Positions 11,132-45,889 of a stretch of 55,913 bases of DNA are shown in pieces (positions within the stretch are counted from its first letter, which is position 1; the number at the start of each line of letters is the position of its first letter). The stretch is from Candidatus Poribacteria bacterium (GTDB taxonomy: Bacteria; Poribacteria; WGA-4E; PCPOR2b), in NCBI GenBank assembly GCA_021295755.1, contig JAGWBT010000004.1, forward strand, positions 1 through 55,913. Reading direction: 5' to 3'. Below the pieces are notes generated by a model that saw nothing but the letters and a program-made list of their open reading frames with translations, was not told the DNA's origin and did no database searches. The translations under genes were made by a program, and so were the position numbers.

Positions 11132-11252
11132 ACGGCAGCCTAATGCGTAATGTGTAATATGTAAAAAGACACGGTAGATGCCGCTCGGTGTGGGTCGTGC
11201 CGCTAAGTTCATAATATGCTGGAACCGCAACATATGCGAAAGGATATAAGCC

Positions 11253-12372: not shown

Positions 12373-13052
12373 TGAAAGTCGAATATCTTTTATTTAATCT
12401 CGTCGTTATTGCCGGACCCATAGCCTCCCAATTCAATTGCCAGATTAAGCAGATTTCCCATTGGAAATTGAAATTACTGGCGAGTGTAATTGTCATGATT
12501 CCTTATATCATTTGGGATGTGCTCGCCACCGGTTCGCATTGGTGGTTCAATGCAGCATATACGCTCGACTTTCGATTATTCGGTTTGCCGATTGAAGAGT
12601 GGCTTTTTTTTATCACGGTTCCATTTGGGTGTTTGTTAGTATGGGAAACCCTGCCTCAAGCAAACAAGGCGACACAGGTGAAGTCTCTTCGGCACGTCAG
12701 ATCTATTTTATACATGCTGTTGTTGGGGGGAGCATTGGTTTTTAGCATGGGTAAGCAGTATACAGGGTTGGTGCTATTTTGTTTGGGGCTCGTTGGATTG
12801 GCAGATAGGTTGTTAAGAGTTGATCTGCTGCTGCAACCGAGGACTTATCTCTATCTTACAGTTGTAGCTGGTTTGGTTTTGGTGTTTAACGGCTATCTCA
12901 CAGCTCGTCCGGTTGTTCTATATGGTGAGTCATATCAGGTTGGCTACCGAATTTTGTCAATTCCTGTCGAGGATTTCGGATACGGATTCGGGCTGATGCT
13001 TTTTAACGCGATTCTCTATGAGAAGTTGAGGAAAATTTGGCATGGAACGTAA
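12372..13052 (+). CDS. crtY: Membrane lycopene cyclase with two fused CrtYc/CrtYd-type domains
   Basis: Two repeats: PYIIWD..A...HWWFN...LFGLPIEEWLFF and LVFNGYLT...VV.Y.......RILSIPVEDFGYG. Confidence 0.85.
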   Translation: MKVEYLLFNLVVIAGPIASQFNCQIKQISHWKLKLLASVIVMIPYIIWDVLATGSHWWFNAAYTLDFRLFGLPIEEWLFFITVPFGCLLVWETLPQANKATQVKSLRHVRSILYMLLLGGALVFSMGKQYTGLVLFCLGLVGLADRLLRVDLLLQPRTYLYLTVVAGLVLVFNGYLTARPVVLYGESYQVGYRILSIPVEDFGYGFGLMLFNAILYEKLRKIWHGT

Positions 13053-14562
13053 GAGAGTGGCGGTCATTGGTGGCGGGCTCGGTGCGTTAAGTGGGGCGAT
13101 TCGTCTCGCGCGGCTGGGATTCTCTGTACAACTATTCGAGAAGAATCCGACAATTGGTGGGAAGATCAACGAGGTGGTTTTGGAGGGCTACCGGTTTGAT
13201 ACTGGGGCATCTTTATTGACGATGCCTTTTGTTATTGACGAATTATTTGATTTTGCTGGATTCAATCGGTCAGATTATCTGGACTTTATACCAATTGACC
13301 CGATATGCCGATATTTCTTTGCCGATGGTTCAGTGATGGATGCAAGTGCTGATAAAGCAAAGATGAAAGCTGCGATCAAACAGTTATCGCCCATTGATGC
13401 GGAAGCGTATGAAAGTTTCTTGGAATATGCGGAACGGATACACACTCTGACAGCTGAAATCTTTATGTTTACACCGATTCATGAGTTCAAGAAACTGATG
13501 AAGTTCCGTTATTTGCGGACGCTGTTTAGACTTCATCAAATAGATCCGTTTCGGACGATACATCAGAGTGTGTCAGGTTTTTTTTCAGATTCGCGCCTGA
13601 TCCAACTTTTCGACCGGTACGCTACGTACAACGGCTCAGATCCGTTTCAAGCCCCTGCAACCCTGAATATAATTCCGTATGTTGAATACGGCTTGGGTGG
13701 TTACTACATCAAAGGTGGCATGTATCGCTTGGTCAATGCTTTGGAAATGATAGCCCGCGAGCGAGGGGTCGAGATTCATACATCGGTCAAGGTTGAAAAG
13801 ATTTGTCAAGATGGTAAACAGGTCAGTGGAGTGCGAGCCAACGGTCAGAAGGTTCCCGCGGATTATGTACTGTGCGGTGCAGATGCTATCATAGCGCATG
13901 ACGAATTGATTGGCGGTCCTCCAAATCAGCGTGAAAAACTGAATCGATTGGAACCATCGTTGTCGGGAATGGTATTCCTTTGGGGTGTTAGAAGTAATCA
14001 CTCACAATTAGCGCATCACAACATTATCTTCTCTAGTGACTACGAAGCGGAATTTCGGCAGATTTTCAAGCATAGGCGAGTGCCGGATGAACCGACTATC
14101 TACATCGCCATAACGAGTAAAGCGGATGCAGCACATGCCCCTGTTGGTGGGGAAAATTGGTTTGTGTTGTTGAACATGCCTTATCTCGCACCGGGACAGA
14201 TGTGGCAAAAGGAAAAAGTTCGGATGCGAAACTTTGTACTAGGTAGGTTAAGAGAAATTGGTCTCGACATCGAAGATCGAATCGAAGCGGAGCAGGTCTA
14301 CACACCGGAGGATTTTTCTGAGTTTTATGCTAGCAATCAGGGAAGCATCTACGGCATTTCGTCCAATAGCAAAACTACCGCGTTCAAACGTCTACCGAAT
14401 CGTAGCCGTGTCCTTGATAGACTCTATTTCGCAGGCGGTTCTGTGCATCCGGGGGGTGGTATTCCTCTGGTTATATTGTCTGGAAAAATGGCGGCATCAT
14501 TGATTGCTGCGGATCACGGATTGAAAATTGAAAACATCGTTGGTCCGCGGGAGCGGATATGA
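13042..14562 (+). CDS. crtD: CrtI-family desaturase, most like 1-hydroxycarotenoid 3,4-desaturase
   Basis: FAD motif IGGGLGALSGA; RFDTGASLLTMP; FDRYATYNGSDPF; GGSVHPGGGIPLV (recalled as typical of Bacteroidota-type CrtD); a second, canonical crtI follows. Confidence 0.65.
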   Translation: MERKRVAVIGGGLGALSGAIRLARLGFSVQLFEKNPTIGGKINEVVLEGYRFDTGASLLTMPFVIDELFDFAGFNRSDYLDFIPIDPICRYFFADGSVMDASADKAKMKAAIKQLSPIDAEAYESFLEYAERIHTLTAEIFMFTPIHEFKKLMKFRYLRTLFRLHQIDPFRTIHQSVSGFFSDSRLIQLFDRYATYNGSDPFQAPATLNIIPYVEYGLGGYYIKGGMYRLVNALEMIARERGVEIHTSVKVEKICQDGKQVSGVRANGQKVPADYVLCGADAIIAHDELIGGPPNQREKLNRLEPSLSGMVFLWGVRSNHSQLAHHNIIFSSDYEAEFRQIFKHRRVPDEPTIYIAITSKADAAHAPVGGENWFVLLNMPYLAPGQMWQKEKVRMRNFVLGRLREIGLDIEDRIEAEQVYTPEDFSEFYASNQGSIYGISSNSKTTAFKRLPNRSRVLDRLYFAGGSVHPGGGIPLVILSGKMAASLIAADHGLKIENIVGPRERI

Positions 14563-16040
14563 AACAGAAAATCGTCATCATTGGTTCAGGATTTGGTGGG
14601 CTTGCAGCAGCGATTCGACTCCAATCCCAAGGTCTGCAAGTTACAATTCTGGAGAAAAACGCGAAAGTTGGTGGTCACGCCTATCAATTGGTTAAGAATG
14701 GGTATACTTTCGACATGGGACCATCTATTATCACCGCACCCGACCTGATTCAGCGAGTATTTAGATGCGCCGGTGTGCGGATGGAAGATTACCTTGATTT
14801 AGTCAAACTGGATCCGTTTTATCGCATCTATTTCCATGATGGTTCATCGCTTGACTATACGGATGATACCGAGCGGATGAAACAGCAGATGGCGCAGTTC
14901 AATAGGGCAGATGCTGGAAACTACGACGATTTCATGGCGCATACCCGTCAACTCTACGATGCTGTTATCACAGACGGTTTAGGCTCAATTCCGTTTGATT
15001 TGCAAACTATGCTTGGTTTTCTGCCGCGTGCCTTGCGACTGCGAGCATTGACACCTGCTTTTAACTTCGTTAAGAGGTATTTTGATGACCCACGTCACCG
15101 CTTCACCTTTTCGTTTCATCCGTTGTTTATAGGTGGCAATCCGTTCCGGGCACCAGCTGTTTACTTAATGATTCCTTATCTTGAGAAGACAGGGGGTGTC
15201 TGGTTCTGCAAAGGTGGGATGTACAACCTTGTGCGGGCATTAGAGAGCGTGTTCAAAGAACTCGGCGGTGTTGTTGAAAACGATGCAGAAGTGGAGCAAA
15301 TTGTTGTTGAAGATCGGCAAGCAAAAGGCGTTCTAGCAAACGGACAATTTTACGAGGCAGATGGTATTATTTCCAACGCCGATTTGGTGCACACCTACGG
15401 AGAACTTATTGAGCCCGAACATCGTAGGAGATGGTCTTACAAGAAACTCAGGAAAACTCAATATTCGATGAGTGCATTTTTGCTCTACCTTGGTGTTCGT
15501 AAAAAGTATCCACAGTTGCAGCATCATACGCTAATTCTTTCTGAGAGGTACAAAGGGTTGGTAGATGACATTTTTGATAATAAGATTCTTCCAGATGATT
15601 TTTCAATGTATTTACACATTCCATCGCAAACGGATCCGTTGATGGCACCGGAAGATTGTGAGAGCATATATGTACTGATTCCAGTACCGAATTTGGAGAG
15701 TGGGATCAACTGGGAAAAGATGGAGAAAGTGTATATTAACAAGGTACTGACCTTTTTGGAGAACGACTTTGGATTGACAGATTTAAGTACTTCGATTGAG
15801 GTAATTGAAACGTTCACACCTTTGGATTTTAAACAACATCGGAATAGTCATCTTGGCAGCGCATGGGGAGTTGAGCCAAAACTAACGCAGACAGCGTATT
15901 TCCGGCCACATAACCGAAGTGAAGATATAGAGCAACTTTACTTCGTTGGAGCAAGCACCCATCCCGGTGCAGGAGTGCCTGGCGTGCTGCTAACAGCAGA
16001 AACAACGGTAAAGTTGGTTATCAAGGATTTGATAGGATAG
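14559..16040 (+). CDS. crtI: Phytoene desaturase
   Basis: IGSGFGGLAAAIRL, TFDMGPSIIT, FSFHPLFIGGNPF, FRPHNRSEDI..LYFVGASTHPGAGVPGV. Confidence 0.9.
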   Translation: MKQKIVIIGSGFGGLAAAIRLQSQGLQVTILEKNAKVGGHAYQLVKNGYTFDMGPSIITAPDLIQRVFRCAGVRMEDYLDLVKLDPFYRIYFHDGSSLDYTDDTERMKQQMAQFNRADAGNYDDFMAHTRQLYDAVITDGLGSIPFDLQTMLGFLPRALRLRALTPAFNFVKRYFDDPRHRFTFSFHPLFIGGNPFRAPAVYLMIPYLEKTGGVWFCKGGMYNLVRALESVFKELGGVVENDAEVEQIVVEDRQAKGVLANGQFYEADGIISNADLVHTYGELIEPEHRRRWSYKKLRKTQYSMSAFLLYLGVRKKYPQLQHHTLILSERYKGLVDDIFDNKILPDDFSMYLHIPSQTDPLMAPEDCESIYVLIPVPNLESGINWEKMEKVYINKVLTFLENDFGLTDLSTSIEVIETFTPLDFKQHRNSHLGSAWGVEPKLTQTAYFRPHNRSEDIEQLYFVGASTHPGAGVPGVLLTAETTVKLVIKDLIG

Positions 16041-16209
16041 ATTGGGTCTCCGTCTATTTTGATATTTTGTGTCCTGATGGCTGGTGGGACGAATTTCTAA
16101 CCCAACTCATCCGCTTGATCCAATACCTGTAGGTGTGTCTAAGATACTAGCAACTTGGATTAGGATAGTCTTCAGTGTTTAGGAATCAATTGAGGGAGGA
16201 GATTATATC

Positions 16210-17136
16210 ATGAGATCGTGGAAGCTAACAGACGAAGATCGAGCTGCGTTTGAGTACGCTCGTAGAATAACCGCATACTATTCAAAAAGCTTTTATGTCT
16301 CAGCACGAATACTTCCCGCTGATCGTCGGTGGGCAACATACGCGTTGTACGGTTTCTGCCGACACTGTGACAATCTGATCGACACACCACGTCAGCGAAC
16401 TCGATCGGAAATCTTTGGAGAGATCGAATTCTTGACAGAAGAATTGCAAATTGCCTATAACACCGGCGAGTCCGAGCACCCGGTCGTTCGTGCCTTTATT
16501 CTTGTTGCCAGGCGGTATGGGATTCCTATTGGATACCCCCTCGATCTACTCAAGGGGGTTACTATGGATATCCAACAGGCACGGTACATAACATTTGATG
16601 AACTCACTTTTTTTTGTTATCGGGTTGCCTCCGTTGTTGGACTGATGATGACACATATCCTTGGGTATAAAGACAAACGTGCTTTTGAATACGCGAAGTT
16701 ACTCGGGATTGCGATGCAACTGACCAATATTCTGCGAGACATCAAAGAGGATAAGGAGATGGGACGGATCTATCTGCCACAGGCGGATTTATCGGTATTC
16801 GGTGTGTCGAATCAAGACATCTTAAATGAGAAGATGACGCCTCAATTACGTGCACTTATGAAGTTCCAAATTAAACGGGCAGATCGTTATTATTCTGAAG
16901 CGATCCCCGGCATCTCTCTACTCAAGACGGAATCACAGTATGCGATCTATTCGGCTGCTAAAATTTACCGTGGTATCTTGAGGCAAATTGAAGCGCGAAA
17001 CTATAATCCATTCACAAGCCGAGTATTTGTGCCACCCATTCAAAAAATTGGGATTCTGTTACACGAGGTGCTTAGGATGAACGTTCTATCGGCGTGGGAG
17101 AAACTATGCCCGATGCACTCTGGAATAAATAGATGA
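16210..17136 (+). CDS. crtB: Phytoene synthase
   Basis: YSKSFY, LYGFCR..DNLID, YCYRVA-like FCYRVASVVG, LGIAMQLTNILRDIKED...GRIYLP. Confidence 0.95.
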   Translation: MRSWKLTDEDRAAFEYARRITAYYSKSFYVSARILPADRRWATYALYGFCRHCDNLIDTPRQRTRSEIFGEIEFLTEELQIAYNTGESEHPVVRAFILVARRYGIPIGYPLDLLKGVTMDIQQARYITFDELTFFCYRVASVVGLMMTHILGYKDKRAFEYAKLLGIAMQLTNILRDIKEDKEMGRIYLPQADLSVFGVSNQDILNEKMTPQLRALMKFQIKRADRYYSEAIPGISLLKTESQYAIYSAAKIYRGILRQIEARNYNPFTSRVFVPPIQKIGILLHEVLRMNVLSAWEKLCPMHSGINR

Positions 17137-17792
17137 TTCGAGCACAGCACCGCCTTTGGGCGGACCTCATCTTCCATCCCTACCTTAAGTGGCTCTTCAA
17201 GCGTCATTTTGATACGATTCAACTGTTAGGGACACCGCCGGAAATTCCCAACGATTTACCGTTGCTGTTGTTGCCAAACCACAGTACATGGTGGGACGGG
17301 TTCTTTGTGTATCTGCTCAACAAACGGATTTTTCGTCGTACCGCCTATCTGATGATGCTTGAGGAACAGCTATCTAAATACTGGTTCTTCGCGAAGATTG
17401 GTGCTTATTCAATCGAGCCGGGCCATCGGCGGGGTATCGTCGAATCGCTGGCATACACCGTTGAGTTATTGAACCAACAGATGTCGCTGGTCTCTGTTTT
17501 TCCTCAAGGCGAACTATTACCGTGGCATACGCGACCCCTCGGTTACAAGCGAGGCGTTGAATGGATTTTACAAAAGTACGGCAAGCAGGTCGCTGTACTT
17601 CCATTGGCAATTCGTACGGAATTTCTCGGTGAAAGATGTCCAAGTGCCTTTTTTCTTTGCGGGGAAGTGAATCTATTTGACACAGAAACATTTTGCGGGA
17701 TGGATTGGCTTGAAAAGACTGAAACAGTGTTGTTGGATGAATTGGCATTACGGATTCTTTGTGAAGAAGAGGGACTAAATCTGCTTTCCTGA
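17133..17792 (+). CDS. cruD: PlsC-family acyltransferase, probable carotenoid glycoside acyltransferase (CruD-like)
   Basis: HX4D motif PNHSTWWDGF, GAYSI, VFPQGE; located between crtB and the glycosyltransferase. Confidence 0.7.
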   Translation: MIRAQHRLWADLIFHPYLKWLFKRHFDTIQLLGTPPEIPNDLPLLLLPNHSTWWDGFFVYLLNKRIFRRTAYLMMLEEQLSKYWFFAKIGAYSIEPGHRRGIVESLAYTVELLNQQMSLVSVFPQGELLPWHTRPLGYKRGVEWILQKYGKQVAVLPLAIRTEFLGERCPSAFFLCGEVNLFDTETFCGMDWLEKTETVLLDELALRILCEEEGLNLLS

Positions 17793-17801
17793 AAGGTAGA
17801 T

Positions 17802-18947
17802 ATGATACTATTTACATGGCTGATTATCTCGGCTGGGCTGCTACTGATTTGCTTGATAGTGACTTTGTTCAATGCCGTAACTGCACCGATGCTCAAAAAA
17901 GCCAATAACTACCGGAACGAACCCCGTGTTTCAGTGCTGATTCCCGCTCGAAACGAGGAAGCCAACATCGGTGCTTGTATCGAAGGATTCTTGGCTCAAA
18001 AGTACGATAACTTTGAGATTCTCGTTCTTGATGATCAGTCGACAGATCACACGGAATCCATCATCAAGGAGTTGAGTCAACAATATGTTAACATTCAAGC
18101 AATTCAGGGCCAACCCCTGCCATCGGGCTGGACGGGAAAAAACTGGGCGTGCCATCAACTGAGTCAGTATGCGAGTGGAGAGATACTCATCTTCACCGAT
18201 GCGGATAACCGTCCCGCTCCAACTGCGATTGCGAATAGTATCGCTTATATGCAGAAGTTAGAGCTGGGACTATTGTCAGCGTTTCCACAGAAGGTGACAC
18301 GGACCTTGGCGGAAAAACTTGTGGTTCCGGTGGTTGATATGTTCGTTTACGCCGGACTTCCACTATGGCTTACATATTTGAGTCGTTCACCGTCGCTTGC
18401 TGCCGCGAGTGGTCTGTGGATTGTTTTCACTCGTGAAGCGTATCAACGAATTGGTGGACATGAGGCATTATCGAATCGAATTGTTGAAGACGTTGAGTTA
18501 AGTCGATTGGCAAAAAAGAGAGGTATTAAAATCTTAACATTGGCGGGCACTCAGATGGTATCTTGCAGAATGTATCATTCGTTCAGCGAAGTATGGAACG
18601 GATTTTCCAAGAATCTTTTTGGATTGGTAAGCTACCGGACGATCCCGTTTTTTGTCTTAATTCTGCTGCTGTCTACCACGTGTGTTCTGCCCTACGGTAC
18701 TGTCTGGTTCGCGCCATTTACAGCACTTTCCCTCGTTGCGATCATCATGAACGTTACGATGCGACTGATACTATCGGTCAAATATAAACACCCTTTCTTT
18801 GCAAGTGTGATTTTGCATCCGTTTGGTGTTTTGCTAACATTGCTGATTGGGATTAATTCATTCTATCAAGCTAGACGTGGTCGCTTGGAATGGAAGGGAC
18901 GACAGATCGACTTGCAGTTGGGCAAGTCGATACATGATAAATTGTGA
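17802..18947 (+). CDS. cruC: GT2 glycosyltransferase, probable hydroxy-carotenoid glucosyltransferase (CruC-like)
   Basis: VSVLIPARNEE, LDDQSTD, PSGWTGKNWAC.QL, FTDAD, IVEDV.L, WNGFSKN, WKGR. Confidence 0.75.
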   Translation: MILFTWLIISAGLLLICLIVTLFNAVTAPMLKKANNYRNEPRVSVLIPARNEEANIGACIEGFLAQKYDNFEILVLDDQSTDHTESIIKELSQQYVNIQAIQGQPLPSGWTGKNWACHQLSQYASGEILIFTDADNRPAPTAIANSIAYMQKLELGLLSAFPQKVTRTLAEKLVVPVVDMFVYAGLPLWLTYLSRSPSLAAASGLWIVFTREAYQRIGGHEALSNRIVEDVELSRLAKKRGIKILTLAGTQMVSCRMYHSFSEVWNGFSKNLFGLVSYRTIPFFVLILLLSTTCVLPYGTVWFAPFTALSLVAIIMNVTMRLILSVKYKHPFFASVILHPFGVLLTLLIGINSFYQARRGRLEWKGRQIDLQLGKSIHDKL

Positions 18948-19005
18948 AAAGCGAGCAAATGCGTATCATTATTATACGATATAGGCTTAGGCATCCGGTG
19001 TCGTA

Positions 19006-19662
19006 GTGAACAGAGTAAAAATAGGGGTGCTATATCTATTTTTAGGCGCAGGTGGACTGTGGCACATGCTCAACGTTTTCCAAGAGGTTATGCGAGCACT
19101 TGCTTCGCCAATCATGTTTGGCTTAGGTGTTTGGCTATTTTGGGAATGTTGGCAGATATATTCACAGCGTGAAAGGCTAAAGCTGGCCCTCTGGGGTGTA
19201 GGTATTATTATCGCTAGTTTTGGAATTGAATGGCTTGGTGTACGGACAGGTAAGATTTTTGGTTCGTATGTATATGGACAAACACTACGTCCGTCAATTG
19301 ATGGTGTGCCAATCTCTATTGGAGGTGCTTGGTTTGTAATGCTTATTGCTTCAATGGCTGTTGCCCAAACAATTGCACCGAAATCCGTAGCTAGGAGTCT
19401 TGTTAAGTTGACGTGTTTTGTTGCATTGTTAATGGTTTGTTTCGACCTATTGCTGGAGCCTGCGGCAGTAAAATTGAACTACTGGATATGGGTGAATGAC
19501 CACATTCCTTTGCAGAACTATCTAGCGTGGTTTGGATTGAGTTTTATCTTTACGACGATCGGTTTACGAGTTGGTTTGTTCCATCGCTCGTTACCCCGAA
19601 TCGCCTTTCATTTTTATTTTGCTCAACTCGCTTATTTCGGATTGGTATGCCTGAAAAGTTAA
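19006..19662 (+). CDS. cruF: Carotenoid 1,2-hydratase (CruF/DUF422 family)
   Basis: IEWLGV.TG.IFG.Y.YG..L......VP..IG..WF; FDLLLEP.A....YW.W....IPLQNY.AWF. Confidence 0.85.
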   Translation: MNRVKIGVLYLFLGAGGLWHMLNVFQEVMRALASPIMFGLGVWLFWECWQIYSQRERLKLALWGVGIIIASFGIEWLGVRTGKIFGSYVYGQTLRPSIDGVPISIGGAWFVMLIASMAVAQTIAPKSVARSLVKLTCFVALLMVCFDLLLEPAAVKLNYWIWVNDHIPLQNYLAWFGLSFIFTTIGLRVGLFHRSLPRIAFHFYFAQLAYFGLVCLKS

Positions 19663-19666
19663 AAGT

Positions 19667-20410
19667 ATGAAATCAACAAAAAAAGGCTTATTCATTGGGT
19701 TAACGATTATAGGACTATGGGGATTGAGTCTCTCAATTTTACTCACGTTCAATGTGGCTGATATCAACATTGCGCTAATACCTGTGTGCATAGTTTGTCA
19801 GACATTTCTTTATACCGGTCTGTTCATTACGGCGCACGATGCGATGCACGGTACAGTTTGTCCGACTCATCCATGGGTCAACAATATAATCGGCGCAATT
19901 GCTGTCAGGCTATACGCACTATTCTCATATCGCAAATTACAAGAAAAGCATTGGGAACACCATCGAACACCTGCAAGCGATACGGACCCAGATTTTCACG
20001 ATGGACAACACAGTAGCTTTTTAGTGTGGTATCTCTGTTTTATGAAAACCTACCTGAGTTGGAAACAGGTAATTGGGATGGCGATTGCATTTCAAATCAT
20101 GGAATATGGTTTGGCTATCTCTAGCTTCAACTTGGTTCTGTTTTGGGTCTCTCCTGCGCTACTTAGCACGGTACAGTTATTTTATTTCGGGACATATTTA
20201 CCACACCGAATGCCGGCAGGTGGATATAACAATCCGCACCGTGCACAGAGCAATGCGTATTCTACGTTCTGTTCGTTTATCACCTGCTATCACTTCGGAT
20301 ACCATTGGGAACATCACGAGTATCCATACATTCCATGGTGGAAGCTGCCAACAATACGAAAGATGAAATCTTTGAATCATGTATATCGCCATAGTCGTCC
20401 CATTGGATAA
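19667..20410 (+). CDS. crtW: Beta-ring carotenoid ketolase
   Basis: LYTGLFITAHDAMHG, HWEHH...S..DPDFH, QLFYFGTYLPH, CYHFGYHWEHHEYP..PWWKLP. Confidence 0.9.
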   Translation: MKSTKKGLFIGLTIIGLWGLSLSILLTFNVADINIALIPVCIVCQTFLYTGLFITAHDAMHGTVCPTHPWVNNIIGAIAVRLYALFSYRKLQEKHWEHHRTPASDTDPDFHDGQHSSFLVWYLCFMKTYLSWKQVIGMAIAFQIMEYGLAISSFNLVLFWVSPALLSTVQLFYFGTYLPHRMPAGGYNNPHRAQSNAYSTFCSFITCYHFGYHWEHHEYPYIPWWKLPTIRKMKSLNHVYRHSRPIG

Positions 20411-20443
20411 TCCTCGGTTTTTGGTACAGAGAAAACATCTCCT

Positions 20444-21145
20444 ATGAGTTTAGTAATCACTGCTGTGGTAGGAATTGTAATGATGATGTTACTGCGGCTC
20501 TTCTTTAAGCCACCATTTGGGAAGAATGTTATTCGTTTGGACACGGAGCAACGGTTAGTCGCGCTCACCTTCGATGACGGGCCTCATCCGCCCTACACCG
20601 ATCGGTTACTTGATGTGCTCGCCAAACACAAGGTCAAAGCTACATTCTTCATGATTGGAAATCGGATCGAAAAACATCCCCAAACGGTGCACCGCGTCAT
20701 CGTTGAGGGACATCAGATTGGTAATCATTCCTATAGCCATCCTGTGTTGGGTTTCCGGTTGCCTGCTCGTATTCGACGAGAAATTGAACGCACGGACAGC
20801 CTTCTTCGACAGTTAGGGGCTGCGGGTGAGATCGCGTTTCGTGCACCGATGTTAACAAGATTTCTGCCAGTCGCATGGTTTCTCGCGAAAGCTGATAGAG
20901 CACATATTAGTTGTAATGTGTGGAGTTGGGATTGGACTACCCAGAATCCGGATAGAATTGCCCAAAGGGTATTAAAAAAAACAGGGCCCGGTTCAATAAT
21001 TGTATTACATGATGGAAAAGCGGAAAATGCACATGCGGACCGTGCGGGTACACTCGAAGCAACAGACCGAATTATCACGAAACTCAAACGCAAGAAATAC
21101 CGGTTTTGTACAATTAGGGACGGTTTAAGAGCAGACATCTGTTAA
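20444..21145 (+). CDS. NodB-type polysaccharide deacetylase with N-terminal membrane anchor
   Basis: ALTFDDGP, GNHSYSHP, IIVLHDG motifs; RxPY motif reads RAPM and DxxDW reads SWDW. Confidence 0.85.
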   Translation: MSLVITAVVGIVMMMLLRLFFKPPFGKNVIRLDTEQRLVALTFDDGPHPPYTDRLLDVLAKHKVKATFFMIGNRIEKHPQTVHRVIVEGHQIGNHSYSHPVLGFRLPARIRREIERTDSLLRQLGAAGEIAFRAPMLTRFLPVAWFLAKADRAHISCNVWSWDWTTQNPDRIAQRVLKKTGPGSIIVLHDGKAENAHADRAGTLEATDRIITKLKRKKYRFCTIRDGLRADIC

Positions 21146-21267
21146 GATATAGTCTCAGGAAATTGTGGCAGAGACCTATTTCCGCAGGATTTCTTTACCA
21201 AAAAGTCCTTTAGATTTAGACATCTGATTTTCTGGAGATTTCAATTGGTGCAAAGGAGAAAGGTCGA

Positions 21268-36614: not shown

Positions 36615-37676
36615 CTACCAATCCTCATCGTAGAAAGAGGTGCTTGGATAGCTGTAGGTGTTGCCTTCGTAGTTTTTCAACTGGATTTCATCATCGTCGA
36701 ACGACACGACTGGATCTGGGATGAGCGCGATTTTTCCACCGCCGCCGGGGGCATCAACCACATAGTGTGGTACACCGAGCCCAGAGATATGCCCGCGCAA
36801 TGCGGAGACAATTTCCAGGCCTGTTTTGATGGACGTGCGGAAGTGATCTGTTCCGTAAACGAGGTCTGCCTGATAGATATAGTAGGGTCTGACGCGGATT
36901 TTGAGGAGTTTCTTCATCAAATCAACCATGACCGCGGGATCGTCGTTGACGCCTTTGAGCAGGACTGCCTGATTGCCGACAGGGATACCGGCATCTACTA
37001 ACATGCCACACGCTTTCTCAGTTTCCGGCGTAACTTCTCGCGGGTGATTGAAGTGGGTGTTAATATAAAAAGGGTGGTACTGTTTGAGAATCGCACATAA
37101 CTCCGGCGTGATACGTTGTGGTAAAGTGACTGGAACACGCGAACCGATTCGGATAATTTCAAGGTGTTCAATGGCGCGGAGACTGCCGACGATATAATCG
37201 ATCTTCCGATCCGTCAGCATCAACGAATCCCCCCCGGAGATAATTACGTCACGGATTTCAGGGTGACTTCGGATATAGTCCAAGCCCATTTCGATATTGT
37301 TGTCGGGGATGGAATCCGGATCTCCCACTTTACGCTTTCGAGTGCAGAATCGGCAGTAGATCGGGCACATGTAATTGACGTAAAACAGCACCCGATCCGG
37401 ATAGCGATGCGTGACGTTGGGGACAAGGCTATCATCTTCTTCGCCGAGTGGATCGTCTTCTTCAAAACCGGTTCGGATCAGTTCCTTTGGGTCTGGGACA
37501 ACCTGTTTCCAGATCGGGTCTCCCGGCTCCTCGATCAGGCTTAAATAGTAAGGGTTGATACGGATAGGAAATACTTCGTGAACGCGCTTTATCTCGTCGA
37601 GATCTACATCGAAAATAGCAGCAAGTTTTTCAGGTGTATTGACGGTATCCCGAACGAGCTTTTTCCATTCTTCCAT
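36615..37676 (-). CDS. KamA-family radical SAM/PLP 2,3-aminomutase (lysine 2,3-aminomutase-like)
   Basis: HRYPDRVL, CPIYCRFCTRKR, ISGGD.L, RIGSRVPV..PQRIT, THFNHP.E, NQAVLL.GVND, DAPGGGGKI (PLP Lys). Confidence 0.9.
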   Translation of the reverse strand: MEEWKKLVRDTVNTPEKLAAIFDVDLDEIKRVHEVFPIRINPYYLSLIEEPGDPIWKQVVPDPKELIRTGFEEDDPLGEEDDSLVPNVTHRYPDRVLFYVNYMCPIYCRFCTRKRKVGDPDSIPDNNIEMGLDYIRSHPEIRDVIISGGDSLMLTDRKIDYIVGSLRAIEHLEIIRIGSRVPVTLPQRITPELCAILKQYHPFYINTHFNHPREVTPETEKACGMLVDAGIPVGNQAVLLKGVNDDPAVMVDLMKKLLKIRVRPYYIYQADLVYGTDHFRTSIKTGLEIVSALRGHISGLGVPHYVVDAPGGGGKIALIPDPVVSFDDDEIQLKNYEGNTYSYPSTSFYDEDW

Positions 37677-38424: not shown

Positions 38425-38688
38425 TTATTGGGGTGTGACAGTCCCGGCCGACACTAGGGAAGGTGCAGACGCTTGCCTTTTCCGTGGAGGTGCTTTTGGG
38501 ATGGGGTCGTTATGTTTTCGGTAACTCTCTTTGACTCCTTGCCAAGCAACTGTGAGTTCTTTCAGTGCCCCTTCCGGTGTGTCTGCGAATGCGGATATAT
38601 TGGGCATCTCGACAAAATGGGCTAGATAATCGCCGTCTTCATCAAGAAATATGTTTACGGTGAATCCGTTGAATATGTCGTTATTCAT
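38425..38688 (-). CDS. hicB: HicB-family antitoxin (no clear C-terminal DNA-binding domain)
   Basis: DEDGDYLAHFVEMPNISAFADTPE.AL.EL...W......Y....DPIP; start overlaps the hicA stop. Confidence 0.8.
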   Translation of the reverse strand: MNNDIFNGFTVNIFLDEDGDYLAHFVEMPNISAFADTPEGALKELTVAWQGVKESYRKHNDPIPKAPPRKRQASAPSLVSAGTVTPQ

Positions 38689-38924
38689 TGTGATCTCCTT
38701 GAGCATGTTGTCTGAGAAATTCTCTTACCTGATACCCCTTTGCTTGTGACCGCTTGGGTTGGATTGGTAGCCGATAGCCTCGCGGTGAATACGAGATGCG
38801 ATGGCTACCGGTCTGATGGTCGAAAACCCAAGCCACATTGAGTAAGCAGGATTTCAAATTCACGAAAGCGTAGGCTATTGGGGTTATTTCGCGCTTTTGC
38901 TAATAGTCTCTCTCTTCGCTTCAT
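38681..38924 (-). pseudogene. hicA: HicA-family toxin with +1 frameshift
   Basis: MKRRERLLAKARNNPNSLRFREFEILLTQCG, one extra T at about 38830, then WVFDHQTGSHRI...YRLPIQP....AK.YQV. Confidence 0.8.
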
Positions 38925-40497: not shown

Positions 40498-40716
40498 TTA
40501 GGATGCGTGGTATTTCTGACGGGTTGTTTCCTTCTGGGGGTGGTAGCCGGGACAGGTTAGCACGGGTAGACGTGGATATCTCTGAAAGTCAGGGTTGGAG
40601 TTTGAAAGGAGGCACAGATAGAAACGACTATAATTGGCGTTTTCGATTATTTTGACGTGCTGACAGGTCTGACACAGGCCAACTTCCAGATGACTTTTGG
40701 TTTTCATGGAATTCAA
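40498..40716 (-). CDS. Small Cys4 protein of unknown function
   Basis: GLCQTCQH...Y.C......F.RYPRLPVL.C.GY; starts 8 bp after the TGT-like stop. Confidence 0.7.
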   Translation of the reverse strand: MNSMKTKSHLEVGLCQTCQHVKIIENANYSRFYLCLLSNSNPDFQRYPRLPVLTCPGYHPQKETTRQKYHAS

Positions 40717-40724
40717 CTAAAATC

Positions 40725-42560
40725 CTATTTCGATTTTTTAGCCAATACACTGGATAATATTTTTATGAGTTCGTCGAGATGGATGTGTCGGAAAAACTCG
40801 GAAAGTCTTTTCTGCTTGGGCTTAGTTGGTAGCAAGATGAAATCCGGGTGATGCTTGCCGACCAGCTCTAAGACCTTGCGGTAGGCACGGCTTGTAGCAT
40901 AACCCACGATCAGTTCATAGTGTGCTTTATGCCGATCGAGATAGGCGTTGAACCTATCTGCGCTGAGTTGAATTTGGGCAGCGTTCCGAGGCAACAACTG
41001 AAAGTCGTAGCGGACTACTGCCTCCCGCGATTCAAATTCTTCGGGGACGGGTCCATAAAGTCCCGATAGAGTGATTTTATGGATGAACTGCTGATCCCCG
41101 CCAAATGCGGTGCGGAGTGTGGTGTTTACAATGGAATGGGTGCGTGACAGGGAATACGGCTTCTGGCCAGCACAAGGGATTGTCAAAAGAATCCGTTTTT
41201 CTGGAGGAGGCTGATAATCTGGGGGTATTGAAAACGAGTCGGGAGTATAGTTCAACGAGAGCGATGGTTGCGTCCGTTGAGTCGTCAAACGTTTAGGTGT
41301 GGAGACCACGGTCTTTGACATCTTCGTTGCAAAATCATTGTCGTTTTCGATTAACCAGTTAACTGCGTCCCGAACACCGCGTGCCTTTGAGGCGTGATCG
41401 ACTACTGCTGCGAGCGAATTGTCGGCTTTAATTCCCTTCACCATGTGTTTGAGAGTTTTGACCTCCATCTCAAAATTGTGCAACGCAATTTTGGCGTAGT
41501 AGTAGCTTTTGTATTTTCCCGTTGAGGTGAGTCGATAGCTTTTTGCTTCCATGAATGCTTGTTGCATCTCTTCGAGCGAAGACTCCCGACAGACACGACA
41601 GGTGCACTCCATCGTATCCAACTCCAGGATCTTTAGTTTTTTCCCTGTCTCCGGATGTGAATAGCTTAAGCTACGCGCAGCTTGAATGTAACTCGTGCTG
41701 TCAAAACTATCGACCCCCAAGTAAGCGAGTATTGGGGTTAGATTGCCAGAAACGCCGAAGGCGTGGATCGGTGTCCGGTCCCGTGCTGATTCCGGGATGG
41801 CGTCGAGTACACCACATATCCGGGATAGCACCTCTGAATCGTTGTCGCCCCGCAATGGTACGAGCGAGCCGACTGCAAGTCCGAAGGAGGGGAGCGCTCC
41901 CACCAGCCGCTCAAAAACATGCGTGACGTAGATTTGAATATCTTCTCTGGATTGTCCGTGACAACAGATGTACAGGTAGGGCGGGTTGTCCATAGCTGCG
42001 AGTTTCTCTGCAACTCGGAACGCATTCTGAAGGCTCCGATCCATACGGATTTCGGCTTCGGCGCGGACGAGACCGGGCGGTAGTGGATAATCGAGGGAAG
42101 CGATGATATCACCACCCAGATCGAGTTGGAAGTCTAGAATATTATCCGCCTCGGTCTCCTTATGGATACCGAATTCTGAGAGGGAAAGCCCGGCGTTGTA
42201 GAGCAGTTTGAAGCCGCCCGAATCCAGAAACATGGGGGCATCATAGGGGCCGTTGGGCTCTCGGTAGCGTTCGCGCATCGGTTTTTCTCGCCAGTAGCCG
42301 ATGTGCTTGCCTCTGAGGTTAAAATCGAGGAAATGTAATACCTGCGAGAGGATTGGCACGTCGTATTTCATAACGTCTTTCAGCAGGTATTTCCATATCC
42401 CACCCCCATTTGTGCTCGTGCTCGTCATGAATGAGAGGACGGGAAATAAAATTGGTGTTGATAGCGGTGGGAGTGCGATCCCGTTGCGCTGTAAGTGGAG
42501 TTCTCCGATCCTGCCAGCTTGCCGCTGGACTGTCGTTTGATAATCTGACGTGTCACTCAT
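40725..42560 (-). CDS. Archaeal-type tRNA-guanine transglycosylase-like protein fused to a DUF5591-like domain
   Basis: AGRIG.L...TP.LFPV, FLDSGGF, LDYP, AVGSLVP, IHAFG, GVDSFDSTSY, Zn site CTCRVC...HN; C-terminal IPCAGQKPYSLSRTH...LSGLYGPVP.EFE...YDF. Confidence 0.8.
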   Translation of the reverse strand: MSDTSDYQTTVQRQAGRIGELHLQRNGIALPPLSTPILFPVLSFMTSTSTNGGGIWKYLLKDVMKYDVPILSQVLHFLDFNLRGKHIGYWREKPMRERYREPNGPYDAPMFLDSGGFKLLYNAGLSLSEFGIHKETEADNILDFQLDLGGDIIASLDYPLPPGLVRAEAEIRMDRSLQNAFRVAEKLAAMDNPPYLYICCHGQSREDIQIYVTHVFERLVGALPSFGLAVGSLVPLRGDNDSEVLSRICGVLDAIPESARDRTPIHAFGVSGNLTPILAYLGVDSFDSTSYIQAARSLSYSHPETGKKLKILELDTMECTCRVCRESSLEEMQQAFMEAKSYRLTSTGKYKSYYYAKIALHNFEMEVKTLKHMVKGIKADNSLAAVVDHASKARGVRDAVNWLIENDNDFATKMSKTVVSTPKRLTTQRTQPSLSLNYTPDSFSIPPDYQPPPEKRILLTIPCAGQKPYSLSRTHSIVNTTLRTAFGGDQQFIHKITLSGLYGPVPEEFESREAVVRYDFQLLPRNAAQIQLSADRFNAYLDRHKAHYELIVGYATSRAYRKVLELVGKHHPDFILLPTKPKQKRLSEFFRHIHLDELIKILSSVLAKKSK

Positions 42561-42920
42561 TTTAATTCGCCTCTAAGCGGGCCGCTCCCCACTCTTTTCC
42601 TTCTAGCGCGGGCAACTCGACTTCAACGGTTTTGGGTTCAATGTTTGCGTTCGATGCGTCTCTAGCTTAGGAGATGTGCGTGTAGAAAAAGGCAGCGAGC
42701 ATTATGGATATTAGTTTATGCCAATGTGCAAAGCTTTGTCAAACTTTTTACTCGCCATTAAAATTTGATTGTAATGCAGGATTTGGCGTTGAAAAATAGG
42801 TGTTGATGTGAGATAATGGACATGCCTATGTTGTAATTAGGTAGAAGGCTGGAACGGCGTTTTATGCCTTTTTCGTGTGTTGGAGGTTGGAGAATGACAA
42901 TACGAAACATGCAAAGAAAT

Positions 42921-44816
42921 ATGGTATCGATCAAGGCGGCAGAGATCTCCACGCCGCCGGCGTGGGCATTGATAGAGCATCAACTTATCCGCCTCATGGA
43001 GAAGGCGGTGGATTTGGCGGCGCAGAAGTATGGTCGTCTTGATGGAACCCCTTATAATGTGAACGATGTTGATGATACATACGAAGCGCATTCATACAAA
43101 GGACTCCTTTACGCTATCGGTGCGGATGAGAGGGTGCTGGAGATCGGTCTCCAAGAATGGAATGCGATTACCCGGCTTTATGATGACGGGATTGTGCGTC
43201 GGGAGGATGAGCCGCAACATCCAGAGTTTCGGGTGCAACTCCACAATGAGTACTACAACCTGAACGGTCCCGCCGACTGGTTTCACATGGGCGAAGGCAA
43301 TCAGTCCTTTTACTGCTTCGGTTTGGCGGATCCAACCCATCCGGAGAACATCCGACGCGCCAAACGGTTCGCAGCGATGTATATGGCTGAGGATCCTGAA
43401 GCCCCCAACTATGACCCTGAGTATAAGATTATTCGCTCTCCATTCCATGGCAGCGTCGGTCCCCGTTTTCATGCAGACCTTGCGCTGGCGAAGGTGCTGC
43501 TGGATCCGGTTTACTATCCGGGTGGCGTTGCACACGGGCACGCTCAACGGTCAAACCTCTATCCGGTGGTTGAGGATTTAGAGGAGAACTGGTTTGAGAA
43601 CCCGGGGCGGGCGGAAGAAATTCTAAAGATTTTCGATGACGTCGTTCTTAACGGCGATATTCCAGATAATTTAGCGGCTACGGCGCTGATGACGAATGCC
43701 TATCTTTACACCAGCGAAGAGAAGTATAAGCGGTGGGTCCTCGAATACACGGAAGCGTGGATGGACCGCACACGGGCTAACAACGGGATTATTCCGGACA
43801 ACGTCGGACCTACAGGAAAGGTAGGCGAGCAACGCAACGGTCAATGGTGGGGTGGATTTTACGGGTGGAACAGTCGTAATTCTGCCCGTAATGCGTTTTT
43901 AGCCGCGACCATCGCCGCTGAATGTGCCCTGTTGCTCACCGGCGATTTTGGCTATCTGGAATTCATCCGCTCGCAGATTGAATTTTTATTGAGTCTTGCT
44001 AAGACGCGGGAAGATGGTCAGTTGCTTGTGCCAACGCGAATCACGCAAAACGGTTGGGAGGGATATCAGCCGAGAGGAATTCAGTGGTTGGCACGTGTAT
44101 ATCATGCGTCGATGGGGGCAAGGGATTACGAGCTAATAGCGAGACTGCGTGCCGGTGAAAGGGAGAATGACTGGAATGAAGTCGAGGTTGCGGGTGACCG
44201 GAGCAGTGGGAATCTGGAGGCACGTTTTAACTACTACGACGGCGTAAACCCCGATTGGCCCGAAAAGCGGTTACAGGCGGAGTATCAATACGTCTTGGCG
44301 ATGTACGAGTTTATGCGTTGTGACTCCCGTGATACCGCGCAGATTATCGCCGAGAACCGGTGGCCCCCGAACCCTGTCGTTACCAAGGGAATCACACAGG
44401 TGACGATGGGCTCACCACAGCCTATCTACAATGGCGGACTGTTGCGTGCGACGGTACGTTATTTCGACATGGACCGTGCACGTCCGGGGCTTCCGAAGGA
44501 TGTGGCGGCTCTAGTTGATAAATTGGAGTCTGACAGGGTGGGCATCCAGCTTGTGAATCTCAACCGAACTGAAACTCGGAATGTGATTGTACAGGCGGGT
44601 GCTTTTGGGGAACACCAATTTACTCAAGTGAAATTTCAGACAATTGACCAAGAAAAAGCATTGGAGAATACCATTCCTGTTGATAGCAAGTATTTTGTAG
44701 TCCAACTACCTCCCTCCACAAATATTCGACTGGAGGGAGCGATGCGACGTTTTGTGAATCAACCGAGCTATGCCTTTCCGTGGCATGGCGACAGGGTGCC
44801 GATGCCGTTTCGATAG
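42921..44816 (+). CDS. Conserved hypothetical protein (about 630 aa), probably a carbohydrate-active helical-barrel enzyme
   Basis: Long clean ORF, likely start 42921; rich in W/Y/D/E/H motifs (DDTYE, DWFHMGEG, QWWGG.YGW, NPVVT.G..Q.T.G); no family recognised with certainty. Confidence 0.6.
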   Translation: MVSIKAAEISTPPAWALIEHQLIRLMEKAVDLAAQKYGRLDGTPYNVNDVDDTYEAHSYKGLLYAIGADERVLEIGLQEWNAITRLYDDGIVRREDEPQHPEFRVQLHNEYYNLNGPADWFHMGEGNQSFYCFGLADPTHPENIRRAKRFAAMYMAEDPEAPNYDPEYKIIRSPFHGSVGPRFHADLALAKVLLDPVYYPGGVAHGHAQRSNLYPVVEDLEENWFENPGRAEEILKIFDDVVLNGDIPDNLAATALMTNAYLYTSEEKYKRWVLEYTEAWMDRTRANNGIIPDNVGPTGKVGEQRNGQWWGGFYGWNSRNSARNAFLAATIAAECALLLTGDFGYLEFIRSQIEFLLSLAKTREDGQLLVPTRITQNGWEGYQPRGIQWLARVYHASMGARDYELIARLRAGERENDWNEVEVAGDRSSGNLEARFNYYDGVNPDWPEKRLQAEYQYVLAMYEFMRCDSRDTAQIIAENRWPPNPVVTKGITQVTMGSPQPIYNGGLLRATVRYFDMDRARPGLPKDVAALVDKLESDRVGIQLVNLNRTETRNVIVQAGAFGEHQFTQVKFQTIDQEKALENTIPVDSKYFVVQLPPSTNIRLEGAMRRFVNQPSYAFPWHGDRVPMPFR

Positions 44817-44860
44817 GGTGCTCAAATAGCATTGTTCAAACAACTCGAAAAGGAGATTAT

Positions 44861-45889
44861 ATGGAAAGGCAAACTGCTATAAGTATTGCTGACGATGCGT
44901 TTTACATCAATGGAAAAATAACCTATCCCGGTCGATTCTATAACGGACATAAGATTGAGGGATTACTCCTCAATTCGCGGATGGTGCAGGGAGTTTTCGA
45001 TGATCGCAATCCGGAGACTGTCGCCATGTGGGCATATCCTGACACCGGCGAGTGGGATGCGGAAAGGAACACGCGAGAGTTCTTAGAGGCAATGCCTGAA
45101 TGGAGATCCTACGGTTTATTGGCATTTACGATCAACCTTCAAGGTGGAAGCCCGGAGGGATACTCGAAGGGGCAGCCGTGGCATAATACAGGGATTGAGG
45201 CAGATGGTAGCTTAAACCCCGATTATATCGATCGGTTGACTCGTATTATCGATCGTGCCGATGCACTTGGAATGGTTGTGATTCTGGGTTATTTCTATTT
45301 TGGTCAAGATGAGCGTGTTAGCGACGAGGCGGCGGTTGTTCGTGCTGTAGATAATGTTACGCACTGGATCTTTGATCAGGGATATACGAATGTCCTCGTT
45401 GAGGTCAACAATGAATGCAATGTACAGCGATATCTCCACGACATTTTGAAACCGGACCGGGTTCATGAGTTGATTGAACGGGTTAAGGGCATAACCCGTG
45501 ATGGACGACGGCTGCTTGTCGGGACAAGCTACGGCGGCGGAAAGGTCTCAGAGGAGAACGTCGTGCGAACATCAGACTTTTTGTTGATGCACGGCAACGG
45601 TGTCCGCGATCCCAACCGGATCGCCGAGATGGTTCAGCAAGCACGGCAGGTGTCCGGCTACCGAACGATGCCGATTCTGTTCAATGAGGACGATCACTTC
45701 GATTTTGATAAGCCGCTTAATAACTTCGTTGCAGCAATCAGTGAGTATGCGTCGTGGGGATATTTCGATCCGGGCGAGAATAACTACTCCGACGGTTACC
45801 AAAGTGTACCGGTGCAGTGGGGACTCAATACAGAACGTAAGAAAGCTTTCTTTGAGAAGGTTCGAGAAATCGCTGGAGATAGCGCATAA
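44861..45889 (+). CDS. Glycoside hydrolase-like TIM barrel (clan GH-A-like)
   Basis: Start 44861 after AGGAG; candidate acid/base VNNEC and nucleophile ILFNED; SWGYFD. Confidence 0.6.
   Translation: MERQTAISIADDAFYINGKITYPGRFYNGHKIEGLLLNSRMVQGVFDDRNPETVAMWAYPDTGEWDAERNTREFLEAMPEWRSYGLLAFTINLQGGSPEGYSKGQPWHNTGIEADGSLNPDYIDRLTRIIDRADALGMVVILGYFYFGQDERVSDEAAVVRAVDNVTHWIFDQGYTNVLVEVNNECNVQRYLHDILKPDRVHELIERVKGITRDGRRLLVGTSYGGGKVSEENVVRTSDFLLMHGNGVRDPNRIAEMVQQARQVSGYRTMPILFNEDDHFDFDKPLNNFVAAISEYASWGYFDPGENNYSDGYQSVPVQWGLNTERKKAFFEKVREIAGDSA

Follow-up and report, generated by a model that had tools for sequence, protein, structure and literature searches.

Domain architecture of the fusion protein

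We analyzed a 55,913-nucleotide contig of a Candidatus Poribacteria bacterium (JAGWBT010000004.1, assembly GCA_021295755.1; this whole stretch is referred to below as the window) in which a barrel of the tRNA-guanine transglycosylase (TGT) superfamily is fused with a DUF5591 domain. The window is an ordinary piece of chromosome, with genes for ArgD, a cyclophilin, a KamA-family radical-SAM enzyme, RsgA, Pth, L25, IspE and tRNA-Gln, as well as a TonB receptor, permeases, a sulfatase and a BNR protein. The fusion is encoded by an open reading frame (ORF) of 611 amino acids (aa) with an ATG start (positions 40725-42560, minus strand), the boundaries of which are exactly those given in a first-pass annotation made from the DNA sequence alone.

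The protein consists of a TGT barrel, a helical linker and a DUF5591 domain of the ArcS C1 type, all encoded on the minus strand. Residues 1-105 comprise an N-terminal beta-hairpin with the GRIG..TP..PV pattern typical of ArcTGT, as judged by alignment to 1iq8, and precede the TIM-barrel transglycosylase core (PF01702, residues 106-342, positions 41535-42245; 59.5 bits, cut-off 26.3). The helical linker (residues 346-448, positions 41217-41525), which is colinear with ArcS according to the NCBIfam ArcS alignment and helical in the model described below, leads to the Rossmann-like DUF5591 domain (PF17884, residues 449-568, positions 40857-41216; 46.1 bits, cut-off 26) and to further helices that extend to residue 611. 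DUF5591 was the only C-terminal domain found. C2 was absent, no Pfam match to PUA was obtained at E≤1, and the protein does not have the tRNA-binding C1-C2-PUA C-terminus of ArcTGT.

Archaeal models ranked first in the NCBIfam scan, and no equivalog cut-off was approached. The ArcS model (NF040592; 84.8 bits, cut-off 440) matched residues 275-571 with its positions 142-405 in one continuous stretch, and arcTGT/TgtA (TIGR00432) scored 79.5 bits (cut-off 350). Lower scores were obtained with the ArcS variant of Thermoproteota (NF053620; 38.4 bits, cut-off 600), bacterial queuine Tgt (TIGR00430; 21.8 bits, cut-off 306.75) and DpdA (NF041059; 18.9 bits in NCBIfam and 18.3 bits in PADLOC, cut-off 200), the last covering residues 227-295 only. 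The general model tgt_general (TIGR00449) scored 61.7 bits, above its cut-off of 47.6. Membership in the TGT superfamily is supported by profile scores above curated cut-offs, three active-site Asp residues and a CxCxxC..H zinc site.

An AlphaFold2 model built from a 42-sequence input had a predicted local distance difference test (pLDDT) of 88.1 and a predicted TM-score (pTM) of 0.83, and its only low-confidence or disordered loop lay in the linker (residues 419-429). In a Foldseek search of the PDB, the best match was P. horikoshii ArcTGT (1j2b/1iq8, E=2e-20, approximately 550 aligned columns), also the top PDB match by sequence, followed by Z. mobilis TGT (TM 0.75-0.79). The C-terminal half matched 2q07 (AF0587, the C-terminal part of a split ArcS) with E=0.004 as a single sequence and 8.5e-13 as a profile. 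Predicted viral structures that matched included two proteins of Vibrio phage nt-1, a TGT (R9TGF0, 464 aa, E=1.7e-10) and the DUF5591-containing ArcS2 (R9TEI9, E=1.1e-5). A match to Cap10 (9ntn) was weak and partial (E=1e-3 as a single sequence, 1.8e-5 as a profile), covering only about 55-200 residues.

These data agree with the first-pass annotation in that the N-terminal part is a TGT barrel with the catalytic Asp motifs and zinc site, that the C-terminus contains DUF5591 and that the enzyme is of archaeal type rather than a queuine TGT. The combination of the two domains, which that annotation highlighted, is unusual only in part. Canonical ArcS consists of a TGT-like Nt domain, C1 (DUF5591, with a PC-x3-KPY-x2-S-x2-H motif), C2 and PUA (PMC10516641; the motif also in PMC5699537), and TGT plus DUF5591 alone is therefore not new. 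What is unusual compared with ArcS is that the barrel is full-length and keeps every catalytic residue, and that the protein stops after the C1-type domain, without C2 or PUA. Judged by model coordinates, the ArcS model appears to be about 100 positions shorter before the FDS motif than the barrel of the fusion.

Conservation of both active sites

Conservation was assessed in two alignments, one of 39 full-length representatives sharing 30-62% identity (A1) and one of 42 closer sequences (A2). In the barrel, D113 of the FLDSGGF motif (positions 42222-42224), corresponding to the general acid/base Asp (D95 in both ArcTGT and DpdA; role from PMC10164549), and D157 of SLDYP (positions 42090-42092), corresponding to the base-recognition Asp (D130 of ArcTGT and DpdA), were invariant in both alignments. 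The nucleophile Asp (D249 of ArcTGT, D256 of DpdA) corresponds to D287 of GVDSFDS (positions 41700-41702), which was invariant and aligned to the FDS motif of 1iq8. The base-recognition pair H201-G202 of CCHGQ (positions 41955-41960) was conserved in at least 90% of A1 sequences and invariant in A2. The zinc site (positions 41478-41606) is formed by C319-x-C321-x-x-C324 (positions 41589-41606) and H361 (positions 41478-41480) and aligned to CSCPVC..HN of ArcTGT; C321, C324 and H361 were invariant in A1, and C319 was present in at least 90%. Other barrel residues that were invariant or at least 90% conserved in A1 were S114, G116, G231-S-x-V-P235 and N362.

The C-terminal half contains the exact ArcS catalytic motif, P462-C-x3-K467-P-Y469-x2-S472-x2-H475 (positions 41136-41177), which reads P462-C-AGQ-K-P-Y-SL-S-RT-H475 (residues 462-475, PCAGQKPYSLSRTH), was invariant in A2 and was conserved in at least 90% of A1. 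Here the residues that were invariant or at least 90% conserved in A1 were C463, K467-P-Y469, S472, S499-G-x-Y-G503 and P506, with H475 and P462 additionally invariant across the 42 closer sequences. Over family members at 30-94% identity, the catalytic residues of the two domains did not vary. All motifs quoted in the first-pass annotation were found, including VGSLVP (231-235), GVDSFDSTSY (D284/D287), CTCRVC (319-324), H361-N, the KPYS-type motif and SGLYGPVPEE (499-508). Chance is excluded because the motif positions stay conserved at 30-62% overall identity, and residue conservation in both halves indicates that both active sites are under purifying selection. The proposed architecture of a single polypeptide for insertion and conversion of a base is thus upheld in that both domains are present and both are selectively maintained.

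Distribution of the fusion family

A search of 5.8 billion clusters returned 505 homologs, and the best 120 were full-length TGT-DUF5591 proteins with 63-94% identity. All 1.84 billion representatives clustered at 50% identity were also scanned with HMMER, giving 584 matches at E≤1e-3, of which 97 reached E≤1e-30; some 50 of the representative matches were full-length fusions with 33-47% identity. Members of the clade are about 600 aa in length. The description of the gene as an orphan therefore does not apply to the family, which has 505 homologs, but it is correct locally, as no Que, helicase, nuclease or other partner genes accompany it.

Named bacterial hosts include Poribacteria, the cyanobacteria Nostoc, Dendronalium, Allocoleopsis franciscana and Limnoraphis, and an Aggregatilineales bacterium (Chloroflexota). 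The archaeal hosts are the haloarchaea Halorussus, Haladaptatus and Natrinema, and Asgard archaea, which are represented by a single cluster of 4 sequences. The Asgard copy is also solitary. Because of its rarity it is not the tRNA enzyme of that lineage, and we rejected a housekeeping tRNA role for the Asgard copies. A phage origin was also rejected, as IMG/VR gave only two weak partial TGT matches and the 50,697 phage records searched gave none. None of the weaker representative matches, including a stand-alone TGT from haloarchaeal islands, reached the cut-offs for canonical ArcS, ArcTGT or DpdA, and the fusion family is thus its own clade of the TGT superfamily. The database label 'tRNA-guanine transglycosylase', which is applied uniformly to the family, is probably wrong. 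One representative match (P0239, 418 aa) combined a TnpB-like N-terminal segment (12-129) with a DUF5591/ArcS-like segment (210-342) and is either a gene-call artefact or an odd fusion.

Gene context of relatives

The neighborhoods of homologs, which the first-pass annotation had pointed to as a source of evidence, were surveyed in 80 metagenome loci by clustering all neighbors within 6 kb, and Que genes and Dpd-like partners recurred. The recurrent neighbors were QueC/D/E, YhhQ/Vut_1, a DEAD helicase, a PLD-like protein, a GHKL ATPase, DUF6884 and a second TGT. Matches to Dpd components involved DpdK (E=1e-11), DpdJ/YprA-type helicases, DpdH (E=8e-13) and DpdC/PDC-M57A. Outside Poribacteria, the fusion almost always sits in Dpd-like or BRIGADE-like islands or beside a PD-T4-2-like pair.

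Several types of context were distinguished. Type A, in approximately 25 loci from hypersaline samples, consisted of QueC-QueE-QueD, the fusion, DUF6884 (PDC-M57A, a weak DpdC match), a GHKL ATPase and a stand-alone TGT of 415 aa; a DEAD helicase and a PLD-like protein were often present as well. Type B, in approximately 12-19 bacterial loci, had a DEAD helicase of about 1300 aa (SngC/BrxH/DruE/DpdJ-type) and a PLD-like protein (DpdK, E=1e-11) upstream of the fusion, and a YhhQ/Vut_1 transporter directly downstream. Type C (7 loci) was characterized by a 275-aa protein and a P-loop protein of about 980 aa (DpdH, E=8e-13), and two of these loci (L031 and L032) each contained two full-length fusion paralogs. 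Other contexts involved a split YprA-type helicase with an MZB domain, or NurA and HerA.

Haloarchaeal chromosomes and megaplasmids hold the fusion in islands of the BRIGADE type; an integrase or further helicases adjoin the island of Halorussus amylolyticus and that of a Haladaptatus megaplasmid. BRIGADE systems are Dpd-like haloarchaeal systems that were named from genomics alone, in a preprint that does not discuss the fusion (PMC12458937). One island, on the plasmid of Haladaptatus sp. YSMS36 (NZ_CP119784.1, 37876-63792), contained three TGT paralogs (352, 654 and 673 aa), all named 'tRNA-guanine transglycosylase' in RefSeq, together with a DEAD helicase, PLD, DUF6884, an ATPase and a 1493-aa AAA protein. 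In the Aggregatilineales bacterium (JAVJSU010000072.1, locus L105), the fusion was the only TGT and lay in an integrase-bounded element, followed by a 1388-aa DEAD helicase, a deoxyribosyltransferase-like protein, YhhQ and QueC; type B islands likewise had no other TGT. The nucleoside 2-deoxyribosyltransferase-like protein between the helicase and YhhQ/QueC (L105:16572-16991, plus strand) may additionally take part in the handling of bases or nucleosides in this Dpd-like island.

A different association was observed in Allocoleopsis, Nostoc and a third, low-GC locus, in which the fusion was directly followed by a DUF262 protein (NsnA/PD-T4-2_A, E=1e-58/1e-36) and a RiboL-PSP HEPN protein (L098:11905-13621, L100:12140-13853 and L025:2708-4446). 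This is the composition of the validated PD-T4-2 defense pair (PMC10952713). As DUF262 and HEPN follow the fusion in three unrelated cyanobacterial-type loci, a functional three-gene unit is suggested rather than chance. No CD-NTase or Cap9 gene was detected here or in the surveyed relatives, and the gene lacks the setting of the TGT-like Cap10 of type IV CBASS, which comes with a QueC-like Cap9 and a CD-NTase operon; no preQ1 or other riboswitch was found near the fusion gene, or near YhhQ in relatives, in 131 kb.

Poribacteria clade and its history

The closest named homologs and fifteen related loci from species-representative genomes belonged to Candidatus Poribacteria metagenome-assembled genomes, including chromosomes of 5-7 Mb; complete chromosomes with the gene include OZ252032.1, OZ244950.1 and OZ220744.1. 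With tblastn queries for QueC/D/E, YhhQ, helicase, PLD, GHKL, DUF6884, DpdH-like, DUF262 and HEPN proteins, none of these partner families was found, either in the window or across 16 Poribacteria-type loci extended by 10 kb on each side. The large genes of the window were likewise without partner genes by Pfam. DpdB (a ParB-like ATPase) and the dpd restriction genes were absent from the same loci, and the window does not have the YprA helicase, PLD or PD-(D/E)xK nuclease and 7-deazaguanine cluster of a BRIGADE/Dpd-like island. A literature search on Poribacteria tgt and queCDEF returned nothing.

In a neighbor-joining, midpoint-rooted tree without curated outgroups, the Poribacteria-type sequences formed one clade (bootstrap 100/100). 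Its sister group comprised the cyanobacterial, PD-T4-2-linked sequences and loci L022-L029 (linked to YhhQ, helicase and QueD), the group that unites both having a support of 97/100, and types C, B and A branched further out. Within Poribacteria the fusion gene was 82-88% conserved, comparable to its housekeeping neighbors. Synteny with ArgD and a 650-aa protein was restricted to relatives with at least 82% identity, and remoter Poribacteria copies (65-73%) lay in a different housekeeping context, with Fe-ADH downstream. The simplest reading would be that a modification enzyme of defense islands became a solitary, vertically inherited gene in Poribacteria.

The first-pass annotation had suggested a new modification or defense module. 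The occurrence of relatives in defense and DNA-modification islands is in line with this, but the Poribacteria locus itself has no recognisable defense module, and the defense link is not entirely novel, as the haloarchaeal context corresponds to the already named BRIGADE systems (PMC12458937).

Comparison with known systems

The closest parallel is the DpdA2 and ArcS2 pair of phage nt-1, with which dPreQ0 was placed into plasmid DNA and converted to dG+ in E. coli (Hutinet et al. 2023, PMC10516641). Like the fusion, this pair combines a TGT-type enzyme with DUF5591/ArcS-C1 carrying a PC-x3-KPY-x2-S-x2-H-type motif, and has no PUA. However, the phage proteins are separate, whereas in Poribacteria both domains are in one 611-aa polypeptide encoded on a cellular chromosome. 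Sequence similarity between the two systems is too low for tblastn, and the barrel of the fusion has an ArcTGT-like profile, with the canonical zinc site retained.

Canonical ArcS shares with the fusion a TGT-like domain N-terminal to C1, the exact C1 motif and colinearity over residues 275-571, and differs from it in barrel length and catalytic Asp residues, C2/PUA, a nearby RaSEA and host, the fusion being bacterial with a complete barrel and none of these accessory parts. ArcTGT (1iq8/1j2b) shares the GRIG..TP..PV hairpin, DSG, LD.P, G-x-V-P, FDS.SY and CxCxxC..HN, but has Gln169-Gly where the fusion has His-Gly, and C-terminal tRNA-binding domains in place of the ArcS-type C1.

Dpd (DpdA/DpdB/DpdC with DpdD-K) and BRIGADE systems resemble the islands of the relatives in their DpdK-like PLD, DpdJ/YprA-type helicases, DpdH-like ATPase, DpdC-like DUF6884 and QueC/D/E. 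The shared logic is 7-deazaguanine modification of DNA coupled to restriction (PMC10164549, PMC12458937). The fusion differs in that its predicted conversion is by ArcS-C1 (to an amidine), compared to DpdC (amide) in Dpd, and in that DpdB is not adjacent; in addition, the copy in the window has none of the restriction genes. We therefore regard the fusion as a fused cellular counterpart of DpdA and ArcS2 that belongs to a distinct TGT clade.

Base pocket and predicted function

In the base pocket, H201 aligned to a Gln in both ArcTGT (Gln169 of 1iq8) and bacterial TGT, such that His-Gly replaces the Gln-Gly of ArcTGT and of bacterial and eukaryotic TGTs. The first-pass annotation had read this as a hint of a different base substrate, a view that the comparison with DpdA does not favor. 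The crystal structure of DpdA from S. Montevideo shows that this enzyme reads the base via Asp130 and His181-Gly182, beside Asp95 and Asp256 (PMC10164549). In approximate hidden Markov model (HMM) coordinates of DpdA, G231 falls near G206/207 and D287 near D256, and H201 lies at most a few positions from His181. Phage 9g DpdA also has CFHAG ahead of an LGGLVG loop, at the same spacing as that from H201-G202 to the Gly-rich loop of the fusion. A short-segment PDB search, hhalign to phage 9g DpdA and global pairwise alignment gave no reliable residue-level alignment over the His-Gly site. The equivalence of H201 and His181 is likely, and if it is correct, His-Gly would be a signature of a DNA-type pocket and not evidence of a new base. 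The base itself is probably preQ0, because relatives are linked to QueC/D/E and YhhQ.

We propose that the Poribacteria protein is a solitary, vertically inherited insert-and-convert 7-deazaguanine enzyme whose barrel inserts preQ0, whose C1 domain converts the nitrile and whose substrate is probably DNA; we give this reading a probability of roughly one half. In the first step, the barrel would flip out guanine, form a covalent intermediate with Asp287 and insert preQ0 by double displacement, with D287 as the nucleophile, D113 as the acid/base and D157 and H201 reading the base; this step is suggested by the conservation of D113, D157, H201-G202, D287 and the zinc site. In the second step, the tethered ArcS-C1 domain would turn the 7-cyano group of the inserted base into a formamidine (G+) or a related adduct, as suggested by the conserved PC-x3-KPY-x2-S-x2-H motif. 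G+ is one possible product; others are an amino-acid adduct, of the kind seen with T. kodakarensis ArcS, and a hydrolysed form, which is suspected for STSV-2. With DNA as the most likely substrate, the reaction would proceed from dG via dPreQ0 to a dG+-type base, and the protein would be the fused equivalent of nt-1 DpdA2 and ArcS2. In most lineages, the fusion would serve as the modification arm of Dpd-like or BRIGADE-like restriction islands; in Poribacteria, the locus has no restriction partners, and preQ0 would be drawn from the cell's own pool.

Several observations weigh against a DNA-modifying enzyme of this kind. By sequence profiles the protein is nearer to ArcTGT and ArcS than to DpdA, and the match of H201 to His181 of DpdA depends on approximate HMM coordinates, the direct alignments not covering the site. 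The neighboring genes are of the housekeeping kind, some of them with roles in translation (RsgA, Pth, L25, tRNA-Gln), and the partner families seen in relatives are missing from the window and from the ±10 kb flanks of the Poribacteria loci. Insertion by DpdA depends on the DpdB ATPase (PMC10164549), whereas the fusion gene has no DpdB-like gene next to it; ArcS of T. kodakarensis requires RaSEA, of which no gene was found near the fusion.

Some of these points would be accommodated if the same bifunctional chemistry acted on tRNA or another RNA, yielding an archaeosine-type base (G+ or preQ0-Lys) as a housekeeping modification, an alternative that we consider rather unlikely. The best profile and structure matches of the protein are ArcTGT and ArcS, and the gene stands alone, is inherited vertically and shows housekeeping-like conservation in a region with translation genes. 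The PUA domain of ArcTGT is dispensable for G15 exchange (Sabina and Soll 2006, cited in PMC11298593). ArcS acts even on a preQ0 nucleotide, and the Asgard copy is solitary as well. However, no PUA, C2 or other RNA-binding domain was found, the pocket has His-Gly, probably as in DpdA, rather than the Gln-Gly of all tRNA TGTs, and every non-solitary relative is tied to helicase, nuclease or DNA-defense genes and never to tRNA genes. The Asgard form is also rare (4 sequences), and the translation-gene neighborhood is limited to close relatives.

It is quite unlikely that only the ArcS-like half is catalytic, with the barrel serving as a base-flipping or binding module, like the Nt domain of ArcS, and a separate TGT or DpdA inserting preQ0. 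Such a division of labor would fit the TGT-like Nt domain of canonical ArcS (PMC10516641) and the extra stand-alone TGT that haloarchaeal type A islands and the Haladaptatus plasmid encode beside the fusion, but not the family-wide conservation of D113, D157, D287 and the zinc site, the full-length barrel (the corresponding region of the ArcS model being about 100 positions shorter before the FDS motif, from model coordinates), or the type B islands and the Chloroflexota element, which have no other TGT. Transfer of a 7-deazaguanine onto a protein or small molecule, as in Cap10, or use of a base other than preQ0 is very unlikely: the 9ntn match and a pocket unlike that of tRNA TGTs (His-Gly, G-S-L-V-P) are consistent with it, but that match is partial, neither the gene nor its relatives have a CD-NTase or Cap9 nearby, and the links of relatives to QueC/D/E and YhhQ point to preQ0.

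Returning to the insert-and-convert enzyme acting on DNA, bacterial Dpd systems are known to produce dPreQ0 and dADG, and phages carry dG+ among other 7-deazaguanine DNA modifications, with insertion and conversion carried out by separate enzymes in both. The fusion family would unite both steps in one polypeptide in cellular genomes, and would represent a so far overlooked modification arm of several Dpd-like and BRIGADE-like islands. A more far-reaching and tentative extension, which we regard as doubtful, is that this single enzyme hypermodifies the chromosomal DNA of Poribacteria with a dG+-type base throughout the phylum, with no cognate restriction system. If true, a dG+-type base would be found for the first time in cellular rather than phage DNA, and deazaguanine DNA modification would have its first orphan case, comparable to the orphan methyltransferases. 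The Poribacteria clade raises the question of what role such an enzyme has once it is uncoupled from restriction and retained throughout the history of a phylum of sponge symbionts. Whether the substrate is DNA, with dG+ in a bacterium, or tRNA, with an archaeosine-type modification in a bacterium, the finding would be a first. Related copies occur in hosts that have been cultured, namely Allocoleopsis franciscana PCC 7113, Nostoc, Halorussus amylolyticus and Haladaptatus.

Other features of the Poribacteria locus

A promoter-like site (TTGACA-18-TAAACT, positions 42713-42742, minus strand) was present approximately 150 nt upstream of the start codon of the fusion gene, as a consensus match only. 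Downstream, a 72-aa ORF with four Cys residues (positions 40498-40716, minus strand) starts 8 nt after the stop codon, with no terminator-like site found between the two genes. Its core, GLCQTCQH..SRFY.CLLS..YP.LPVL.C.GY, was kept in 10 Poribacteria loci, with identity as low as 63%, and Pfam, NCBIfam and PADLOC gave no match. This ORF is probably co-transcribed with the enzyme gene and may encode a small zinc-binding protein, and a functional link between the two is putative. As a family-wide partner it was rejected, being confined to the core Poribacteria clade and absent from L009-L013 and elsewhere.

No RaSEA gene was found near the fusion gene, where the only radical-SAM gene belongs to the KamA family (positions 36615-37676, minus strand). 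We rejected the latter as a RaSEA partner because of its family and because it lies 3 kb downstream, with ArgD, a HicAB-like pair and the cyclophilin gene in between. The KamA-family protein was 95-99% identical across Poribacteria loci, above any neighbor; it scored 477 bits with the lysine 2,3-aminomutase model, just under the cut-off of 525, and its substrate assignment is uncertain.

Between ArgD and cyclophilin (positions 38425-38863, minus strand), a HicA-like toxin ORF (60 aa, weak PF07927 match) overlaps a 93-aa ORF, which suggests a HicAB-type pair. Because it is absent from all related Poribacteria loci, this pair is a strain-specific insertion. Divergent from the fusion gene are ORFs for a 650-aa protein (positions 42864-44816, plus strand) and a 369-aa protein (positions 44780-45889, plus strand), neither of which matched Pfam, NCBIfam or PADLOC. 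We rejected the 650-aa protein as a conserved partner, as the 650-aa neighbor in L018-L020 is an unrelated ABC transporter; in Poribacteria both proteins are syntenic and 88-97% conserved. Elsewhere in the window, 11 tightly packed co-directional ORFs (positions approximately 11250-21150, plus strand) coincided with a dip in GC content to 0.44-0.46, compared to about 0.50 in the rest.

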